This document shows positions 1,180 to 40,375 of a stretch of DNA of 64,000 nucleotides, one piece after another; position 1 is the stretch's first letter; every line of letters begins with the position of its first letter. The stretch covers positions 434,001 to 498,000 of the forward strand of contig MU056134.1 of assembly GCA_013239625.1 (NCBI GenBank). Direction: 5' to 3'. Below the pieces are notes generated by a model, which was not told the origin of the DNA, ran no database searches, and worked only from the letters and a program-made list of their open reading frames with translations. This DNA comes from Lama guanicoe (taxonomy: Eukaryota). Position numbers and translations under genes: made by a program.

Positions 1180-1500
1180 CGGCCGGACCACCCCCACCGC
1201 ATTCGGCAGCTGCGCTGCCCGCTCACCGACGCGCCTCAGCCCTCTCAGCGTACAGCATGAGCTGGCTGAAGCAGCCCCAGAAGGGACAGCGTGTGAGTAA
1301 CACCGAACCCAACTGCATGATCAGCTGCAGCATCCACCGTCGCGAACCCATCTTCGACGCCATCTTGAGGAAGGGCAATCCGCCGGCCTCACTCCGGCCA
1401 GGGACGCGGGCGCGGAGATGCGACGCGCAACTTCCGGGTCTCGCGGGGTTTTGTGGGTTTCCCTCCCCACTCCTTCCGTTGGGAAACAAAGCTCTCGCTC
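1180..1500 (-). promoter_or_regulatory. TMEM101 CpG-island promoter
   Basis: CpG-dense; YY1-type CAAGATGGC over the ATG; ETS-type ACTTCCGG near 1430; TCTCGCG near 1439. Confidence 0.75.
1227..1363 (-). CDS. TMEM101: Transmembrane protein 101, coding exon 1
   Basis: ATG at 1363 gives MASKMGSRRWMLQLIMQLGSVLLTRCPFWGCFSQLMLYAERAEAR; GTGAGC donor at 1226; 137 nt. Confidence 0.96.
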
Positions 1501-1660: not shown

Positions 1661-1996
1661 TGCAGGGAAAGTGGAGTTACTCCCATTCCCTGGCGGACAT
1701 CGGGTTCCCAGTGGCTCAGCTATATTATCCAGCATGCGCAGTACCCATGTATCGCTATATAAGCCTGACGCGCTGTGCAAGCTCAAAGGTTAGGCCATAG
1801 GTCATAGTTGGATAGATGCCGGCTATGTTAGCCTTGATATAAAAGGCAGAGGGGCCTTGCTGCCGCCGCTGCAACTGAAGCCTGTGTATTCCACCTAGCA
1901 ATAAAGGCGTGTCAGAGATACCTAGGGCTCCGCAAGTGTTCTTACGTCTGCCCGAATTCCAAGTGAATCTGCCAGGCCTTGAGCCCTTGCAGTACA
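1661..1996 (+). repeat. 5' LTR (336 bp)
   Basis: TGCAGGG...AGTACA; TATAAAA 1838-1844; AATAAA 1900-1905; aligns to 7433-7778. Confidence 0.93.
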
Positions 1997-1998
1997 AT

Positions 1999-2016
1999 CG
2001 GTGTAGTTGGCAGGAT
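1999..2016 (+). other. Primer-binding site, tRNA-Ser
   Basis: CGGTGTAGTTGGCAGGAT versus the tRNA-Ser 3' complement TGGCGTAGTCGGCAGGAT: 15/18 match, two mismatches are CpG>TpG. Confidence 0.85.
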
Positions 2017-2032
2017 TGGCCGTGGACTGGTA

Positions 2033-3425
2033 TGGAACCCTCTGCACCCCCAGTGGGGTGGACTTGAGGGGTGGCCCTCGACGATTACGTGGTACTCGGT
2101 GGCGAGCCTTCTTTCTGCTTGGGCACCACCCCAGGACAGGCCCGAGGTGAATGGGTCCCCTGCCCAAGTGGGAAAGGCCCTGCAGAAGGTGGAGGAGTCC
2201 CTAGAAAAGCAGAATGCCCACAGGGCTGCCAGGACCGTGGGGTGGGTGTTCCTCACAGCCCTGTGGGTTGAAACCAAAACCTCGCTGTGAGAGGCAGCGA
2301 AGGTTTGGGAGTTACAGGGAAAGGAAGAGGCTTTGGAATCCCGCATCTGTGCCCTAGAGGAAGATTTACAGACCCTGGAGAACTAACTGTTGCCCCCGTT
2401 GGTAGTGGTAAACTTCTCTGAATAAGGAGAGCCACGACTGCGAGCCTGACCAGTAACACAGCAGCAGCAGCAGCCGCAGCAGCCGCAGCCGCAGCAGCCG
2501 CAGCAGCAGCAGCCGCAGCAGCAGCAGCAGCAGCCAATGGCCCCAGGAGAACAGATTGCTGGCCCACTGCAGATGACTGAGTTTACAAGGTACCACCCAT
2601 GTACTCAGGCAGAACTGGTGGAGTTGGGCAAACAATTTCGCCAAAAGCCTGGGGAGCCATTGGCAGCCTGGATATTACTCGTGTGAGACTTAGGGGTGGA
2701 AGGGATTATCTGTACTCCCCACGAAATGGAAAAATTAGTCTCAATGACCCTGCATCCGTCCTCAAGGCAAAGGCTACAGAATAGCCAGTGCAACAGCCAG
2801 AGTAACCATTCCTTGTTGGATTGGGTAATGGCCGCAGTGCACATGGTGTGGGCCAATGTGGAGGACGTGCCCGAGACTGTAAGTAAATGGCAGTCCTATG
2901 CGGAACTGGTGCAAGTGCTCTGAGAGTTAGGGGTGCGACAGGCTGTGTTCAATGTAAAAACATATGGCCCTGATGAGGAGGGGTTTACAGCAGAATGAGG
3001 GATTTGGTGTTGCAAAACACCCCCTCAACATCTCTCAGGTCCCTTAGGATTAATGAAGTCACCATGGTGGTGGCAAGTTTGGGGAAGGCAGAAAGCCATC
3101 GTCAGCAAAAGGGCATACGGGCCATCACCTGACAACTGGGGAAGTTAGCTAAGAAGACTGGGAAACCCATCAAGGCCACATGCACTCAGATGTGGGTAGA
3201 CCTTGCAGAGGCTGGTGTAGATCAAACTTAGAGAAAAAACCTAATACTTATTTACTAGAGTTATGATAACAGTTCGGGGAGGATCAGAGGCTCACCCCCA
3301 TGAAAAGGAACACCCCTGTGAAGAGCAACAAGGAGTCCCAGTGGACCCGAGTAGTACCTCTTGAGGACCATGTGCTACCCCAGGAGGTACCCAGGGGAGG
3401 GGATACTTTATTTACATTTAAATAG
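2033..3425 (+). pseudogene. ERV gag remnant (class III type); boundaries approximate
   Basis: GWPSTITWYSVASLLSAWAP...GWVFLTAL; ELVELGKQFRQKPGEPLAAW; EMEKLVSMTLHPSSRQRLQ; SLLDWVMAAVHMVW; multiple stops. Confidence 0.8.
2459..2533 (+). repeat. Interrupted (CAG/CCG)25 trinucleotide repeat within ERV gag
   Basis: 20 CAG + 5 CCG triplets; reads Q5PQ2PQPQ2PQ4PQ6 in the gag frame. Confidence 0.95.
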
Positions 3426-6260
3426 GATGAAGGCCAAGGAACCCTTCTACAGGGGGTGGGCAGGGACCAGAGGCCCCATGTGGAGCTTGCTATCTGCTGG
3501 TCCCTGACCAATGTACAGCAGGTATTGGCCTTGATGGACACAGGGGCTGAATGCCAAAAACTCACTCATGGCAACCCGGATAAATTTTAAAGCCCGGTGT
3601 CATGCATAGATGGCTATGGGGGGAGAAGTATCCGGGAAAGCTATACAACTACCCCTTGGGATAGTGCAGTTGCCCCCTAGGAACTATAAAGCTCATGTTT
3701 CCCCAGTACCAGAATATATACTGGGCAGAGACGTGCTCCAAGGCCCATGGCTACAGACAACCACTGGTGAGTTCCGCCTGCGAGTATGGGTGGTGAAGAT
3801 GGTAGAACGGGGATGCACAAAACACCCTCCAGTGCAGCTCCCTGTTCCCCAGCGGGTCACCAGTACCAAACAATACAGACTGCCAGCAGGTCATGATGAA
3901 ATTACTGGCACCACTGCAGAATTGGAAAAGGTGGGTATTTTATGGCTGGCCCATAGTCCGTTAATTCTCCTGTATGGCTGGTGCTTAAACCCAGTGATTC
4001 TTGGAGAATGACTCTGGACTGCCCAAAGTTAAATGCCACAGTGCCCTCGGTGGCCGAATTGATGGATCAACTAAGCCATAAGCTGGGCATTTACCATTTC
4101 TTGGCCAATCTGGCTAATGCTTTTTCTTCTATTGACATCACCCCTGAGAGTCAAGATCAGTTTGCCTTCACCTGGGAAGGGTGACAATGGGCATTTAGGG
4201 TCCTACCTCGGGGATGTTTACATAGCCCTACATTGTATCATGGTTGGTAGCCTCCGACCTAGCTGGATGGGAATGGCCACCTACAGTGTCCATGTACCAT
4301 TACATTGATGATGTTCTTTTAACTAGTGATTCTCTTGCAGACTTGGAGAAGGCTGTGCCCCTTCTGTTGTCACACATGAAAACGTGGCTGAGCGCTAAAC
4401 AAAAACAAATTGCAAGGGCCTGGATTGTCTGTCAAGTTCCTGGGGGTTGTGTGGTCGGGTAAGACTAGAGTTATTCCTGATGCGGTTACTGATAAGATAT
4501 AGGTCTGTCCTACCCCAACTACAGTGAAGCAGTTACAGACCTTTCTGGGTTTGTTGCGGTACTGGAGAGCTTTTGTCCCCTACTTAGCCCAGTTGATACG
4601 GCCTTTGTATGCCCTGGTACACAAGGGAGCCACATGGGATTGGACCCCAGATGCAGGACGGGCCTTTCCTGATGCCAAGAGAACAATTAAGGTGGCTCAA
4701 GCCTTACATGTTTTTGATCCCACCCGGCCCTGTGAATTGGACATGATGTCACTCCTGCAGGATTTGGTTGGGGTCTGTGGCAGCATTCAGAGCATTTGCA
4801 ACAGTCCATAGGGTTTTGGTCCCAACTACAGAAGGGAACAGAAAGCCGGTTTTCTCTCATGGAGAAACAGTTGGCTGCCATATACGCGGCATTACTGGTG
4901 ACTGAGAGTATAACTGGCTTGACGCCAGTGACGGTACAGACCACCCCCCCATAGTGGGTTGGGTAAGAGAGGACCTTGAGGCTCCGAGGTAGGGCAACGC
5001 AAACACCTACACTGGCAAAATGGTGGTGGGGGCAAACTTACAGCAGCAGAGTGTGTTCTCCACTAGCCCTTTACGCGCGGAGCTCCAGGAGGTCCTGGAA
5101 CTGGTGACTTACGTGGATAGTATATCCTCCGCCAAGCCCCCTTTGGAGACAGAACCAGGGGTTAGTTCCTACCAAGAAGGTAGGGACCCCGTGCCAGCAG
5201 ATGCATGATATACAGATAGTTGAAGGCAAGGGCAGCCTCCGACTTGGACAACGGTTGACTTCCAGCCTGCGTCTGATACTATTTGGTATGATACCGGGAC
5301 TGGCCAGAGTAGCCAGTGGCCAGAACTATGTGCAGTATGGTTGGTTGTAGCCAATGAACCATCACCCATTGCTGCCTGTACTGACAGTTGGGCAGTCTAT
5401 AGAGGACTGACTCTATGGATCTCTACCTGGCATTTCAATAAATGGGACATGCATAGGCCCTTGTGGGGCCAGGCCTTGTGGCAGGACCTATGGGAGTTGG
5501 GACCAGAAGCAGGTGACTGTGTTCCACGTGACTGGACATGCACATTTGGCCTCACTGGGGATTATGAGGCTGATACCGTGGCAAAGTTCAATGACTAGAA
5601 ACTGCCCCGCGAGATAAGGCTCCCGACAGCCATGTGGCGCAATGGCTGCACTGACACCTGCTACACACAGGGCAAAAGACAATGTAGGCAGCTGTGCATG
5701 CCTCAGTCCTACCAGTGACCTTGGCAGAGGTACAGAGTGCCAAACTCGCTGGCAAGTGGACGTTATTGGCCCGCTGCCTGCCCCACTCTTAAGGCTACTG
5801 TTATGCCATCACTTGTGTAGGTACTGCCACAGGCCTGTGAGTGGCCTATCTGGCTCAACACCCAGATCAGAGGGCTGTGTTGCATGTGCTAGCACGCCTC
5901 TGCGCAGCGTATGGACGCCCTCTGGTGAATGAAAGTGACCAGGGAACTCATTTTACTGGAGCCCAAGTGCAAAGATGAGCGTGGGACATGAACATTGAAT
6001 AGAAGTTTCACGTCCCTTATAACCCAAAGGCCACAGGTATTATAAAGCAGAACAACAGCCCATTGAAGCAAGGACTGCAGACCACTGCGATAATGCCAAC
6101 TTTGGCAGGATGAACCAGAAGGTTATGGGATGTCCTGTGAGCACTTAATGAACGCAGCCAACAAGGTGGCCTAGCCCCAGTAGAAGCATTGTCCGTCGCG
6201 CCACTGCACCTATCCAGGTCCAAGTCCAGATGAAGGATATTTTGCTAAAACCTGGATTCA
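3426..6260 (+). pseudogene. ERV pro-pol remnant (protease, RT, RNase H, integrase)
   Basis: DQRPHVEL..ALMDTGAEC (~3531); ILGRDVL; QYRLP; WRMTLD; LANAF; QFAFTWEG; YIDD 4301-4312; LQTFLGLL.YWRAFVP; TDSWAVYRGL; WQVDVIGPLP (~5750); SDQGTHFTG (~5934); PYNPKATGIIK. Confidence 0.92.
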
Positions 6261-6269
6261 GACAACAGG

Positions 6270-7400
6270 GTTTGTTGGGACTAACACCCTAGCTGATTGG
6301 GCGCACACTTACGTGACAATTGCTAACCAGTCGGCTTGCTGGATCTGTACTGAATTACCTGTTAGCGCCTCAAATGGGCTCCCATGGAAAAGTAAATCAG
6401 CCACTGAGGCTAATTGGACTTGGTTAAGGTTGTGAAATGACACTAACCCACAGTGGAACTTAACCAAAAAGAAAGGTATTAGCTGGGGTAAGAGAGCGTG
6501 TAAATGCTCTTAGCTCTAGATGGGATATTCAATATGGGATGGTCTCGGCAGGTTGACAGTGGATTGCACAGTGGATGTTGCACCCATCCCCCTCTGCACT
6601 GAATTTGGACAGAAGGGCCCATGTTGAATGGACCCCGCCTGGCCTATGCATTAATGTTACCCAAATGACGCAGAAGGAGAAATGGGGAAAGAGGAATGGC
6701 AGCTTGGCCTGGCCTGTCCCTTACAGGAGCCTTTGGGTCTGTGGGCAGAATGGCAGCCATATCTTCTCCACAGTTGGACTGGACGATGTACATGGGGGTG
6801 GCCACTTCTCCCTGCGCAGGTAATGCCTACCTTACAAACCTGCCCAAGTAATTGAAGAGTATTTAAGGCACGCCACGGAGTATAGTGTACCCTTGGTGGT
6901 ATTATCCCTTAGCCCCTTTTTCCCCCAAGGGGCCACCATAGTGACAAAAGCAGAGGTCACTGCTTTAGCAGTGCACGTGGCCAGGGCATTCATTGAGACC
7001 CATAAAGCCCTGGGCCTCCTTAATGATGAGGTATAGCAACTACGAAAGCTAGCTTTACAAAATCCTATGGCACTTGGTATTTTTGACAGCCTCAAAGGGC
7101 AGTGTGTGAGCTCTTATAGGGTCAGATTGCTGTGTTTATGTTCCAGATGCTCACCATATCAGCCAGGCTCTAATGGCCTTGGGAAAAGAGACAACAGCTG
7201 TTGAACACCTGACTGGAGACCCCCTACAAGAATGATGGGGATCACTGACCTCCAAGTGGCGCTTGGTAGCAGCCATTCTGGGAGGATCTGCTTGTGTATT
7301 AGAGACCTGCTGTTGCAGTCTCTATTGTTGCTGTGGATCATGGATGCAAGGGTCCATCCTTCTCGCCAAGGGACCTTCGCGGAAGACAACTAATGCGTAG
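6270..7400 (+). pseudogene. ERV env remnant, gamma-type (N-terminus apparently deleted)
   Basis: SU CWIC motif 6337-6348 followed by GLPW; LWVCG and WTGRCTWG; TM ISD-like LQNPMALGI from 7055; CX6CC as *ALIGSDCC 7107-7133 (first Cys mutated to TGA). Confidence 0.88.
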
Positions 7401-7432
7401 ATTGTGCGGCGAGTGACCCTCAAGGGATGGAA

Positions 7433-7778
7433 TGTAGGGGAAATGGAGTTACTCAGGCTCCCTTGCTGGACATCCAGTGCCCAGTGGCCCAGCTATGTTA
7501 TCCCACATGCACAGTACCCATGTATCATTATATAAGCATGACTTGTGCTACACAAGCGCAAAGGTTAGCCCATAGGTCATAGTTGGATAGATGCTGGCTT
7601 TGTTAGCCTTGATGTATATATAAGGTGGAGGGGACTTGCTGCCGCCACCACCACCATTAAAGCCTGCATATTCCTCCCTGCAATAAAGGCATGTCAGAGA
7701 TACCTACAGCTCCGTGAGTGTTCTTCCGTCTGCCTGAATCCCGAGTGAATCTGCCAGGCCTTGAGTGCTTACAGTACA
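7433..7778 (+). repeat. 3' LTR (346 bp)
   Basis: TGTAGGGG...AGTACA preceded by purine tract AAGGGATGGAA; followed by TSD GCCTC; roughly 80-85% identical to the 5' LTR by eye. Confidence 0.93.
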
Positions 7779-7783
7779 GCCTC

Positions 7784-11420: not shown

Positions 11421-13866
11421 CTCTATAGAGCAGTACCTATACCTCCCTACAGTAAGCATAAGCAACTACTTTAAGCTAGGACAGACCAGAAACGAGGCCA
11501 GATCAGAAAGCCACCACTTGTTTGTCCCTCCACAGAAGACTAACTGCTGGAGTCAGCATTAGGATTAGCTGGGGTAAAGGGGAGAGAGATTAGTTGAGAA
11601 GTCAGAATTGCCTTACCCTCACCTCGTCAGTTCAGGAATTTAGTTTTCTAGTCTTTTCAACAAAATTGGAAATTACGGGAAAATGGGACAGGGAGGCCAG
11701 GTAGGAAGGCAAGCCACAATCTGATCTGCCTTGGTCCCAGCTGCCAAAATCTGCTCTGGAGAAACCGGGGGAAAAGCCCTGCTTTTTTTCAAGCTGGAAC
11801 CAGGTAACCCTCCTCCCCAGCTCCTTCCACATGTTTACTCTCTCATCTTTTGTCCGAACTTAACTTCAAGCTTTCCTCAAAACCCAGTCTTCCTGGACTA
11901 CTTTTCATCTTGGCTCAAGCAACTTATCCAGTTATTAAGCTGAAGATTTTCAAAACTCTACTTTTAGTCTTCTCTCGACAGCTGGGTGCTAGGGAATAAT
12001 ACATTATCCTTGCCTTAGAGCCTCAGAATTCCCCATTAGACCATTAAAGATAAACCTAAACAAATAACTACGATGCAAGTCATACACGCCACATGGCATG
12101 AGTGATATAAACAAACTGTAGGAATCACTTTTCATTTTCATTGTCGAGAATGGCTTCACAGGTGGCTTTGAAGCAAGGTATTGTAGGATAAAACAGTGAA
12201 GATAGAACAAGATAGACTATTGAGGTTAGAAGTAATCTGAGATCACCTAGCCCCCATACCATATATAGATATTCTAAGATGCTCAACAGATTATAGAGTG
12301 CACTTTGTGGGCTAGAGGGGTCAGAGAACTAGTTGGCAAGTTTCTTTTGATATGGTAAAGTGTGTTGCATTTTCAGAAATGCAAGAGGCAGAAAGAAGCA
12401 TGTAAAAATCTAGAGGACATGAAAGATGTCAATAATGTTTTGGGGGTGGTAAATGGACAGTGTTTGCCTTATTTTCTAGTTTTCTTGTGATGATCCATGT
12501 AAAGCTTTTACAATATAAAAGAACAAAACTCATTTTGAAACTTTACTACCCAGCAGCAGTCTATCACCAGTGGATGGCAGCCCAAGAGCATCCCTTTTTC
12601 ATCTGCAAGGTACTCTGTGCTGTAATGTTAAACCCCTTAAGTTTAGGCAGCACATGCTGATGATTTCAAGTTTCTTAAAGGGGAATTCTCTGGAGGCACT
12701 TAAAGCAGCCTCCAGCAGTGATGGGAAAGCAATTCCACCATGTAAACAATGACCATCCTCCAACCCAGGTGACCAAGTCCAGTTCCCAAACTCTTGTCCC
12801 AACATTCATCCTGTGCACTGCAGCTTCTAGAATTATATGTTCTCATTACACATTCTCAGTATCTTCCATACCAACAGGACAGTAAATTCCATCTCTGTGT
12901 ATGAAGGCAAGCCCTCTACATCTTCCTTTATCAGTACGTCCTATGGGAGAACAGATTTTGACACATACATTCTTAGCTTCAAAAATGTCAAAGAGCCTTT
13001 ACCCTGAATCAGTGGTTCCCAGACTGGAGCCTCTTAACTAATATACAAAAACAAAAACAAAAGTCAGCAATGAGCTGTTCAAACTTAAACAGCACAGATT
13101 CAGTATCAACTCACTATGGTGAGGGTGTTTATACCACACTGACTGGATGCTCTAACTAGCAGTAAACCCAAAGGCACATACGTGGTAGCAAGAAGGTAAT
13201 GGGGTGCTAGGGTGTAAAGGTGTGTGTGTGAGGAGAAAAAGAGAATGCCTCAAAATCAAGGAGACATTAGAAAACTGCCTGTACACATTCCACCACAGAT
13301 GCAAGCCCTCTGTACCACACTCAACAGTTTAATGTTCTTTCAATCTGGGGGGCCATTTCTGCCACTCTCAAGTCTCCTCTGTGTTCCTCTCCAAACCTGG
13401 CTCACACAAGTGAGCAACACACACACCACAGTTCAGAAAGTCAACAGGGTAGCATTAGGAGCCCACAAGTGATAAAGCCTGGGGTCTGTTCCAGCTCTGC
13501 CACCATAGGCAGTGGCGGTATTCTCAAATCACTTAGCCCTGGTAGAACCCACTCACCTTCGCTGAAATGAGTGGTTTTCAAATTACAATCAAAGAAATTC
13601 TTCAGACACTGCAGGGAAGAGGTAGGGGTGGGATTTGTGAGAGGCTGAGAGGCCAGGGCTCTGAGGCCCCCTACCCCTGCCCAAATGTTTTACTGTTAGC
13701 CATGTTTTACTAAAATGCCATCTAAACAAAGACTTCTAAAACAAAGTTGGGGCCTCTGAAAATCAGCTAATCCAATCTCATCTCCAGATTTAATCATCCC
13801 AGGACCAAGCTAACATTTACATTAACATTCACAGAGCACCTTCTAAGTATTAATGGGGAGTATTTA

Positions 13867-13997
13867 GGGGGACGGTATAGCTGAAGCAGTAGAGTGCATG
13901 CTTAGCACACACAAGGTTCTGGGTTCAATCCCCAGCACCTCCTCTAAAAATAAATAAATAGATCTAATTACCTCCCCCTAACCCCGCCCACAAAAAA
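13867..13997 (+). mobile_element. tRNA-derived SINE (camelid Vic-1-like)
   Basis: GGGGG..GGTATAGCT..AGTAGAGTGCATGCTTAGCA..GGTTCAATCCCCAGCACCTCC; A/B boxes; A-rich tail. Confidence 0.8.
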
Positions 13998-14876
13998 TGC
14001 CTTACCTAACACTTTGCACCAATTCTAGATGAGTATTAGTTCTGTGTTTTTAGTTGCATTAGTTGTACAGTTAGAGAAACTAAGGCTTAGATGGGTAAAA
14101 TGACTTATCCAGTCACAAATGAGGAAATGGACGTGAGGATTTGAAGCCAACTATTCATGTCTCCGAAGTACTTGCTCTTCCTTCTATACTGCCTGTCTTT
14201 CCCACCATATTAACTGCACCTTTTGAACTGCTCAAAGTTCCCCTGGATGGTTTCACAAAGAGTCAAAACTGCTTCTTACCAGAAACAGTTGGTACCGCTG
14301 TTTTCCACTCACAGACCTAGACACTAGGGCTGTGGTGGGAGGCGGGGAGGGCAGTGATGACATGGGACATGAGGCATAGAGCCTTTTTCCAGGCTTGCCA
14401 TTTCCCATTAATCACGTTCACTTTTTCAATCTCATTCCTTAAGTTTTCTAGATCATGCAAAGGTCTATTCTCTTCTCCCTCTTTTACCTTCTCCAGAAGT
14501 CTACATTTCCATGCAGACTAAATCAAAGGCTTCGTACTTCAAATCAAGTTCTGACCAATGGCAGGTGAGTATGAAAGTACACTTCTCAGTCTTCTCTCAT
14601 TTCTCCTCCAAACAGTTCTGTGACAAATAGTCATACGTATGTACTCACCCCCTTTATTCCTCTACAACTCCCAACCCTGGATCCCCTTCTTAAATTACAC
14701 ACTTTGTACTGTATTTCTGGATGAATTCTCAAGGGTAGAAGGAGAGAGAGTAAAGAATAGGAAGCAGAGTCTAAAGGGAAACGTTATACCAAACATGCAT
14801 CCTGAGACACTCTCCCTCCAGGGCCTTTAAAGCAGTACAAACCCGAGACATGAGTGATGGTTAAAAAAATTTGGGT

Positions 14877-14882
14877 TTTATT
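14877..14882 (-). terminator. LSM12 polyadenylation signal (3' UTR about 14860-16411)
   Basis: AATAAA on minus strand at the end of an AT-rich UTR segment. Confidence 0.7.
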
Positions 14883-16411
14883 GTTTTTGCTAAACAATAC
14901 TAAAAAAAAAAAAATTTCATTTTGAAGGCAGGGCTTGAATTATTTAATTTTGATCCATTTATTTAATTAAAAAAAAAAGGAAGGGGAAAGAGATCATGGC
15001 CAAAATAATAGTAGTTAATCCCCACCCCACCCCCGAAGCTCTAGCCAGTCACATGAGCATCACCCACTCCCACACAGTGCCTGATATTCAGAGGGTGGCA
15101 CACTCTACCCCACTGGACTGCCTTGAAGGCACAGGGGTAACAGGTGCCAGTTTTAGCTCTCAGCAGGTTAGTCAAACCAGACAAACTGGTGGGCTAAAGT
15201 CCAGAAATTCTTCCCAGGTTTTCTGCCCATTGGCTGAGCACATACAAACTGTCGTAAGCTTATACAATTTCAAGGGGTGGGGAAGGGCATAAGAGCAGGA
15301 GGTTGGCAGGAGAAGAAAAACAATAGGTCATCCAAGCTTCCTCCTGGGCTAGTGGCTCTGGATACAGACTTAAGAGAGGTTGGGATAGGTGGACTCCAGA
15401 TTTCTCATGAAAGAAAACCATCCCTCGAGGAGGAGCTGAGATGTGCCGTGCAAAATAGTTCTTCCTGCAGAGGGCACAGGAGAAAGGGCAGTTGATGCTC
15501 CTGTCTAGGAGACAGGAGAGTGATGAGGAGGTTCTTCTAGTACCATGAAGTAAGACAAAGGCAGAGGGAGAATCCTGAGGTTTTGGCCAAATGTGAGACG
15601 GTACACACACAGTTCAAGACTAAAAAGCCACCAGGAACCCTCAAAGCCAGATCCCATCCGCATACACTGGCTCTACAAAGTGCTGCAGAGGATTCTCGCT
15701 GTGAACTAAGTCAGGTTAGTTGTCTGGCTATGGGTGGTGGGGAGGGCAATAAATTTTTATTTTCAGAGGAATGAGGTGGGAAGAGNNNNNNNNNNNNNNN
15801 NNNNNNNNNNNNNNNNNNNNNNNNNNNNNNNNNNNNNNNNNNNNNNNNNNNNNNNNNNNNNNNNNNNNNNNNNNNNNNNNNNNNNNNNNNNNNNNNNNNN
15901 NNNNNNNNNNNNNNNNNNNNNNNNNNNNNNNNNNNNNNNTCTGTCTGCTGCTCTAGTCTCAACTTAAGTATCACAGTCAGCTTGTTACTTTTATTTTGGA
16001 AGAGAAGATGTAAAAGTTTCTTTCAATCACTTAGAAGGCAAGTGTAGCCACTTATAAAAACAGAATGGCAGAGACAGACTGGGAAAGGAAAGTCAGAGGT
16101 AAAAGGGCAGAGCAGAAAAGGAATATTCAAAAATAAAATTAACAAGGTGACTGTTCCAGAAGGGAGCTGTGAAAAGGACATGGTGGACCAAAGTCTGTTA
16201 GTCAAGTAATGATTCAACTTTTAAATTATTCTCTTGTTCTTTTGTTGGGTGTTTTTTTTTGTTCAAGTCTAAGATTTGGAAATGCCGACCCTCTGTTAAC
16301 AAGAGCCAACAGGAAATATAGGATCCCTTCCCTCCCCTGGCCTGCCTCCGCTGAAGCCACCACCATCGCCTCCTTGGCTGGATGCTGGAAGAGTCCTCCA
16401 TATGTGTGGAC

Positions 16412-33577
<17,166 letters not shown>

Positions 33578-36277: not shown

Positions 36278-40375
<4,098 letters not shown>

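Follow-up and report, generated by a model that had tools for sequence, protein, structure and literature searches.

The stretch analysed here (hereafter the window) comprises 64,000 nucleotides of Lama guanicoe DNA (assembly GCA_013239625.1, contig MU056134.1, positions 434,001 to 498,000) and carries a defective endogenous retrovirus (ERV) on its forward strand, whose lineage, env expression and Pol C-terminus are addressed in this study. The provirus is delimited by a 336 nt 5' long terminal repeat (LTR; 1661-1996) and a 346 nt 3' LTR (7433-7778, with AATAAA at 7682), both with TG..CA ends, and by exact 5-bp target site duplications (TSDs) GCCTC at 1656-1660 and 7779-7783, as already recognized in a first-pass annotation made from the sequence alone. 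That annotation also named a tRNA-Ser primer-binding site (PBS), and indeed the segment at 1999-2016 (+) matches the tRNA-Ser(AGA) gene of the same genome at 15 of 18 positions, the next best isotype reaching 11 in a comparison of 16 sampled anticodon types with a single Leu type among them. Ser(AGA) was the best match in all seven copies compared (13-16 of 18), and the virus presumably primed reverse transcription with tRNA-Ser. Head to head with the provirus lies the first coding exon of the host gene TMEM101 (1226-1363, minus strand; Pfam PF15111, E 3e-12). The 5' LTR begins upstream of this gene, at a distance of 298 nt from its start codon, and the provirus is oriented away from it.

The internal region starts with a HERVS-like gag relic interrupted by stops and frameshifts (approximately 2030-3423, +), recognized by eye through likeness to the HERVS Gag putein. 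It is followed by a pro-pol relic with many stops and frameshifts (3424-6262, +), which comprises protease, reverse transcriptase (RT), RNase H and integrase (IN), and by a broken gamma-type env relic (6265-7430, +). In three read-through frames, Pfam detected traces of RT, RNase H and integrase and no zinc-finger family; gag is degraded. The YIDD motif of RT (4301-4312) and the integrase motif WQVDVIGPLP were reported previously and are present. Among the env motifs reported with them, CWIC (6337) and a relic of the immunosuppressive domain (ISD; 7055) were found, while CX6CC does not exist in a single frame, being split by a frameshift that leaves only SDCC at 7122. Neither gag, pol nor env is open, and the element was wrongly described as complete: its longest stop-free stretch has 133 codons, and in comparison with three of three aligned siblings (other copies of its family) it misses 84-85 nt of integrase after position 5739 and, where pol borders on env, a further stretch of about 430-450 nt, with a deletion junction at 6258-6267 (+). 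With the larger deletion went the C-terminal part of Pol, comprising its dUTPase-fold and SH3-like regions, together with the stop codon of pol and the pyrimidine tract belonging to the env acceptor. The first-pass annotation overlooked both deletions as well as the segment with the dUTPase fold and the exon for the env leader. The provirus encodes nothing functional. A CAG/CCG repeat in its gag frame (2459-2535, +), longer than in siblings, is expanded in the provirus only.

By its sequence, the provirus belongs to the HERV-S (ERV-S) lineage, in agreement with the initial assignment. The best match of its RT among solved structures is foamy-virus Pol (E 7e-14), with murine leukaemia virus (MLV) RT at E 0.012. 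In an RT tree built from 29 of 30 rows (one short row was dropped, and HERV-S itself is absent), six family copies are sister to a mole element (98/97). A second camelid family and an armadillo piece are positioned nearby, and rows with Pfam dUTPase make up a separate ERV-L-like clade. The RT stands apart from ERV-L-like elements and is foamy-like, not MLV-like; grouping with either class I or canonical ERVL had been named at the outset as incompatible with the ERV-S assignment. Pol is most closely related to a gene model from mole and to a galliform cluster of 525 members, with RT identities of 64% to Iberian mole LOC129144682 and 55% to galliform class III (cluster P0001, by inference the AviERVIII/Birddawg group). 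As judged by eye, gag, protease, RT and the surface and transmembrane subunits (SU and TM) are far nearer to the HERVS than to the HERVL puteins in the accessible portion of PMC4724089 supplement 3, and the HERVS markers listed in the available part of that paper (Ser PBS, class I Env, DU-) are all present in the family. Class I-type env is indicated by Pfam TLV_coat in two of three siblings scanned and by syncytin-1 as the best PDB match of a sibling TM; the TM frames of the provirus gave no match. The Iberian mole locus LOC129144682 (P0003) contains an 825-aa open Pol frame and could be either a young copy or a kept gene.

The genome search revealed 40 LTR matches of 72 candidates (71-82% identity, query excluded), 9 further env-end matches and 5 close RT matches, all of these counts being lower bounds, and the provirus is one of roughly ten internal copies. 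Exact 5-bp TSDs were also found at sibling L032 and at the solo LTRs L008, L018, L020 and L028. Because the LTR tree is mostly unresolved (3/27 branches starred), no subfamilies are claimed. Two solo LTRs of the family lie 3 kb apart in opposite orientation (L040; G000:C55226:5837966-5841644), and two others, L016 and L019, have 31 and 28 CpG, far over the family median, possibly marking unmethylated or GC-biased sites. Related elements are found in mole, pangolin, bat, sloth and galliform birds, and HERV-S-related ERVs are reported from 29 bat species in the part of PMC12402889 available to us. The ERV-S lineage is not special to camelids, and this single locus is an ordinary dead member of a known lineage.

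Between the two LTRs of the provirus, 53 of 336 aligned sites differ, 19 of them in the first 105 alignment columns, which reproduces the earlier count. The Kimura two-parameter (K2P) distance is 0.18, or 0.157 without CpG, and four sibling LTR pairs show values of 0.16-0.19. Under two assumed rates, 2.2e-9 and 1.5e-9 per site per year, the pair dates to 36-41 or 52-60 million years (My), respectively. The estimated age of the provirus is about 35-60 My, consistent with the tens of My suggested before. Contigs from RNA libraries, ~3.4% divergent from the window, span both host junctions, and the insertion therefore predates a split of this depth, which likely lies within camelids. Of the sampled sequence words, 90-95% were present under five organism labels.

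Two annotated Env proteins, both intact, were retrieved with a TM query, one from sloth with 426 aa and one from a horseshoe bat with 418-483 aa. From residue ~24-28 onward, they match env of the provirus and its siblings, while residues 1-24 match a frame overlapping RT, located 1.8-2.3 kb upstream and ending at GTAAG (4459). The sloth leader scores 64 at position 4397, compared with a maximum of 46 for 100 shuffles over 64 kb, and scores above 46 at the RT site were obtained in 9/10 targets with the sloth leader and in 8/10 with the bat leader. The segment at 4341-4458 (+), with an AG acceptor before 4341 and the GTAAG donor after 4458, is accordingly a likely Env-leader exon. The leader of the sloth and bat proteins is mildly hydrophobic (11-residue Kyte-Doolittle peak of 1.7-1.8). 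The exon is 118 nt long in the provirus and 120 nt in seven of the ten copies that hold the region (2/12 copies are without it); the acceptor AG is located 116-120 nt upstream of the donor in all ten, and the donor GT is present in nine. In 5/5 aligned siblings, pol ends with a TAG that follows a pyrimidine tract and immediately precedes SU, in a phase fitting the RT donor. The open stretch leading into SU is without a Met or signal peptide in four of these five, and a Met exists in the RT exon in 4/6 copies of the provirus family. RefSeq models use the same RT sites: an exon in Camelus ferus P0035 extends from DLE to VVWS, and P0167 and armadillo P0015 exit RT at VVWS. Based on these comparisons, the lineage quite probably took its Env signal peptide from an exon within the overlapping RT frame, and the env mRNA was likely doubly spliced.

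Several annotated genes are of interest in themselves. In the armadillo NDFIP2 model (P0015), an ERV-S RT exon is spliced onto NDFIP2, leaving RT at the same donor position. The proteins P0171 (sloth) and P0172-P0177 (horseshoe bat), named 'PABLB Env-like' in RefSeq, resemble envs of the HERV-S lineage with an RT-derived leader and are possibly domesticated; the horseshoe bat gene has several isoforms.

The RT donor is used in one RNA contig. This contig, X15, contains a GT..AG joint between 4457/8 and 7146/7, and in a second contig, from a different study, the gag splice donor GTAAGT (2879-2884, +) is joined to 7147. Both GT..AG joints use the acceptor inside TM (7123-7146, +), and its joining to the RT donor is as expected because the env acceptor tract is deleted. 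A third RNA joint, from 6428 to 6576 (GT..GA), coincides with a deletion in sibling L031 and was not taken as splicing. The possibility that a first env exon, with start codon and donor, resides inside the LTR was rejected, since GT was found in only 3/27 aligned LTRs.

A second, younger ERV-S family of this genome (L041-L044 and L075-L081; e.g. G000:C8898:3495000-3504500) has RT ~68% identical to that of the provirus, a near-perfect tRNA-Ser PBS, a different LTR, LTR pairs 89-95% alike and some 30 loci; its closest annotated proteins are from Camelus. The overlapping RT frame is open across the exon in 5/5 copies, against a background of 9-11% of pol windows, and in the one copy scored, the hydrophobicity maximum among 1017 11-mers of pol falls within it. 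This leader frame is without its own Met; instead, an ATG and a phase-matched donor are located at the PBS end in 4/5 copies, and the env AG is present in 4/5 distinct loci.

One member of the sister family, L081 (G000:C1320:1288400-1294900), shows an LTR K2P of 0.11 and 82-83% identity to other copies. Its pol is interrupted by at least 13 stops and at least 4 frame changes, while the PBS-end ATG with its donor, the RT exon of 120 nt and ~400 codons of env are open throughout. At the rate seen in pol, env alone would be open by chance with a probability of 0.0007-0.007, not corrected for there being some tens of copies. L081 is a candidate for co-option, as an env that may be kept by the host, and a fusogenic role is doubtful because the first CX6CC cysteine and the furin-type R-x-x-R site kept in sloth and bat are missing. 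In the consulted portion of PMC9604959, camelids are stated to lack the ARTenvV frame. Other gamma-type env frames, free of stops within the matched part, belong to more distant families (G000:C4216:29127034-29128314, C55226:32612524-32613273 and others).

In siblings, Pol extends ~150 codons past integrase, and this stretch is lost in the provirus. Since the deleted 430-450 nt are the usual position of the class III dUTPase, its absence, as noted initially, cannot be read from this element, and a dUTPase fold is predicted in siblings. With the sequence methods phmmer, hmmsearch and hhalign, the post-IN segment was not connected with dUTPase, Pfam dUTPase was found in 0/90 members scanned, and a region search with the galliform domain matched only itself. 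A profile search collected 132 homologues, many of them fragments, and 89 of these, picked for length and coverage, underlay two AlphaFold models, one for the galliform domain (pLDDT 89) and the other for camelid sibling L032 (pLDDT 82). All 39 Foldseek matches listed are dUTPases. In VIA-align, dUTPase-fold proteins fill the top ranks, with Z 10.6, rmsd 3.5 and 109 aligned residues for the galliform domain, and Z 9.2, rmsd 5.3 and 111 aligned residues for L032, for which unrelated folds score at most 4.4. The last 50 residues of the modelled segment form an SH3/Tudor-like barrel.

Catalytic motifs are largely missing from these homologues. Motifs 3 and 5 were each found in 0/132, compared with 4/5 ERV-L-like controls, and motif 2 in 2/132; the motif-1 pattern gave 17 matches, likely stemming from the SH3/Tudor-like barrel. 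The models indicate that the post-IN segment of siblings and birds very probably has a dUTPase fold, and the lineage likely keeps a pseudo-dUTPase, predicted to be folded and inactive. In the accessible text of PMC5753468 and PMC4299795, ERVS or the avian branch is stated to lack dUTPase, and in that of PMC8278194, ERV-S is said to lack an identifiable one. Because the fold is predicted and motifs 3 and 5 are absent, such statements likely mean a pseudo-dUTPase. In part, this was anticipated in the available text of PMC4724089 supplement 2, where a dUTPase-like trace at the C-terminus is noted for AviERVIII. In the literature consulted, we found no description of a degenerate dUTPase in ERV-S; original HERV-S papers and Repbase Reports may bear on its novelty.

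Combining these results, the locus is probably explained as a defective provirus of the HERV-S lineage, in which Env likely came from a doubly spliced RNA with a signal peptide overprinted on RT, and Pol ended in a predicted, likely inactive dUTPase fold. In the env RNA, a donor immediately downstream of the PBS would have been spliced to the 120-nt exon in RT, and this exon to an acceptor at the pol stop, with the start codon in the RT exon (provirus family) or at the PBS end (sister family). After the provirus lost the env acceptor tract, the RT donor would have been spliced to the TM site, giving a non-coding spliced RNA transcribed away from TMEM101. A broader proposal, plausible but somewhat short of probable, is that the whole HERV-S lineage, from birds to primates, shares the RT-overprinted Env signal, double splicing and a dead dUTPase fold with a non-enzymatic job, and that its three-exon envs were domesticated more than once (in sloth, in horseshoe bat and at one camelid locus, the last in a lineage that lost the artiodactyl ARTenvV).

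Several observations weigh against this explanation. Neither a read nor a contig was found to connect the RT exon with SU, the loci of sloth and bat entered the comparison only as proteins, and all supporting proteins are computed gene models. Each of the two RNA joints is a single contig with 29-30 letters on its short side, coming from a relative 3.4% away and without a silent-stretch control. The leader frame is interrupted in most copies of the provirus family, and the RT acceptor ranks only 24th of 198 pol AG sites by pyrimidine score. To a large extent, the Pol sequence dictates the overlapping peptide, and AG and GT coincide with conserved codons of pol; by itself, their retention in copies that are dead and related is therefore weak evidence. 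Rows of the RT tree were read through by likeness to a galliform query, and the profile-profile comparison of the post-IN segment with dUTPases was no better than shuffles (13 vs mean 11, maximum 17). Some of these points would favour the view that the RT 'exon' consists of cryptic splice sites used after integration in an ordinary dead ERV-S, with Env produced by a single splice and its leader decayed or unrecognized. Cryptic sites are indeed used here (the gag donor 2879, the TM acceptor 7147 and an IN acceptor in the C. ferus model), and the coincidence of splice dinucleotides with Pol codons and the dependence on gene models fit as well. We nevertheless consider this unlikely, as two distant hosts share one leader in an identical register relative to SU, neither a Met nor a hydrophobic run is located ahead of SU in 4/5 siblings or in the open 444-codon frame of L081, and an ATG with a donor in the required phase exists in the sister family. 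For the post-IN segment, a dUTPase that has diverged but is still active, or a beta domain specific to the lineage and without relation to dUTPase, would agree with the failure of sequence methods and with the retention of the segment in the Pol frame from galliform birds to mole and camelids, which implies function. Both options seem rather unlikely considering that two independent first sequences fold as dUTPase with a clear gap to unrelated folds, that the segment sits at the ERV-L dUTPase position, and that catalytic motifs 3 and 5 are absent.

Adoption of the insertion as a part of the TMEM101 promoter, either bidirectional or driving a long non-coding RNA, appears quite improbable. The short distance between the 5' LTR and the TMEM101 start codon, spliced sense RNA in runs of two studies, and an insertion common to a relative 3.4% diverged could all be accommodated by it, but CpG-island promoters commonly transcribe divergently. 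Divergence of the LTR pair equals that of siblings, and thus no constraint is visible. Likewise, the 5' LTR has 13 CpG and is no outlier among 30 family LTRs (0-31), and its CpG protection by the TMEM101 island was rejected on these grounds. Hardly tenable, and already refuted, is the assignment of the provirus to canonical ERV-L or to class I (gamma-like) elements. YIDD and the 5-bp TSD are common to ERV-L and env is of class I, but the Ser PBS in 7/7 copies, the RT tree, the ranking of PDB matches and the HERVS-type puteins all contradict it. The tRNA-Leu PBS, the lack of env and the dUTPase with catalytic motifs that characterize canonical ERV-L, as well as the gamma-like RT of class I, are not features of this family.

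The preferred explanation, an RT-overprinted Env leader together with a pseudo-dUTPase, would have consequences. Screens for env capture seek one long ATG-led frame with a signal peptide, and an env whose start and signal are in upstream exons escapes them or is misannotated; for this reason host-kept ERV-S envs may be under-counted, camelids included. The overprinted leader, if true, would explain why a class III pol stays tied to a particular class I env. A dUTPase fold without an active site would turn the ERV-S/ERV-L marker from 'lost' to 'repurposed' and suggest that the Pol C-terminus has another role. As for the provirus at this locus, it is a neutral fossil that can serve as a marker of camelid ancestry. 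While the lineage is already known, its leader exon and pseudo-dUTPase are features that we did not find in print. In the literature consulted, no description of an env leader exon in ERV-S was found (original HERV-S papers and bioRxiv supplements may bear on novelty), nor one of a camelid or laurasiatherian ERV-S with leader exon or dUTPase fold.

Elsewhere in the window, three copies of a tRNA-like short interspersed element are located at 13861-13990, 28293-28388 and 36814-36924, which we take to be of the camelid Vic-1 type. On the minus strand, ~14800-16510 and 18840-18960 correspond to the 3' untranslated region and last exons of a host gene, presumably LSM12, the usual neighbour of TMEM101.

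Among known proteins, HCMV pp71/UL82 and MHV-68 ORF10 were obtained as fold matches of the post-IN segment (Z 8.6 and 6.9), and both presumably have a dUTPase fold without catalytic motifs. These herpesvirus dUTPase-related proteins differ in being of unrelated origin, and their function is not transferable. As described in the available part of Vargiu et al. 2016 (PMC4724089), HERV-S (HERVL18/LTR18) resembles the provirus family in the Ser PBS, class III Pol, class I Env, an LQNRMALD-type ISD and the lack of a sequence-detectable dUTPase, and its published Env putein also begins inside the Pol C-terminus, without a visible start or signal peptide. It differs in the host and, by eye, in the LTR; the same part of the paper lists it as DU- and gives no env splice scheme. 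XtERV-S of Xenopus tropicalis, according to the accessible text of Yedavalli et al. 2021 (PMC8278194), shares the Ser PBS, class III gag-pol, a 5-bp TSD, CWIC near the SU N-terminus, a gamma-type TM and a post-IN segment recognized as dUTPase by modelling, but it is ERV-L-related, intact and equipped with its own 19-residue signal peptide at the pol stop. Galliform class III elements and mole LOC129144682, the nearest Pol relatives, share the post-IN segment and, unlike the provirus, have long open Pol frames. Env leaders provided by upstream exons are known from other retroviruses, alpharetrovirus Env beginning with Gag codons and snakehead retrovirus having a leader exon, and the likeness consists in an Env start supplied by an exon upstream of env. 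In these viruses the leader is located at the 5' end of the genome, whereas in ERV-S the hydrophobic signal would be overprinted on RT and a second splice would be needed.

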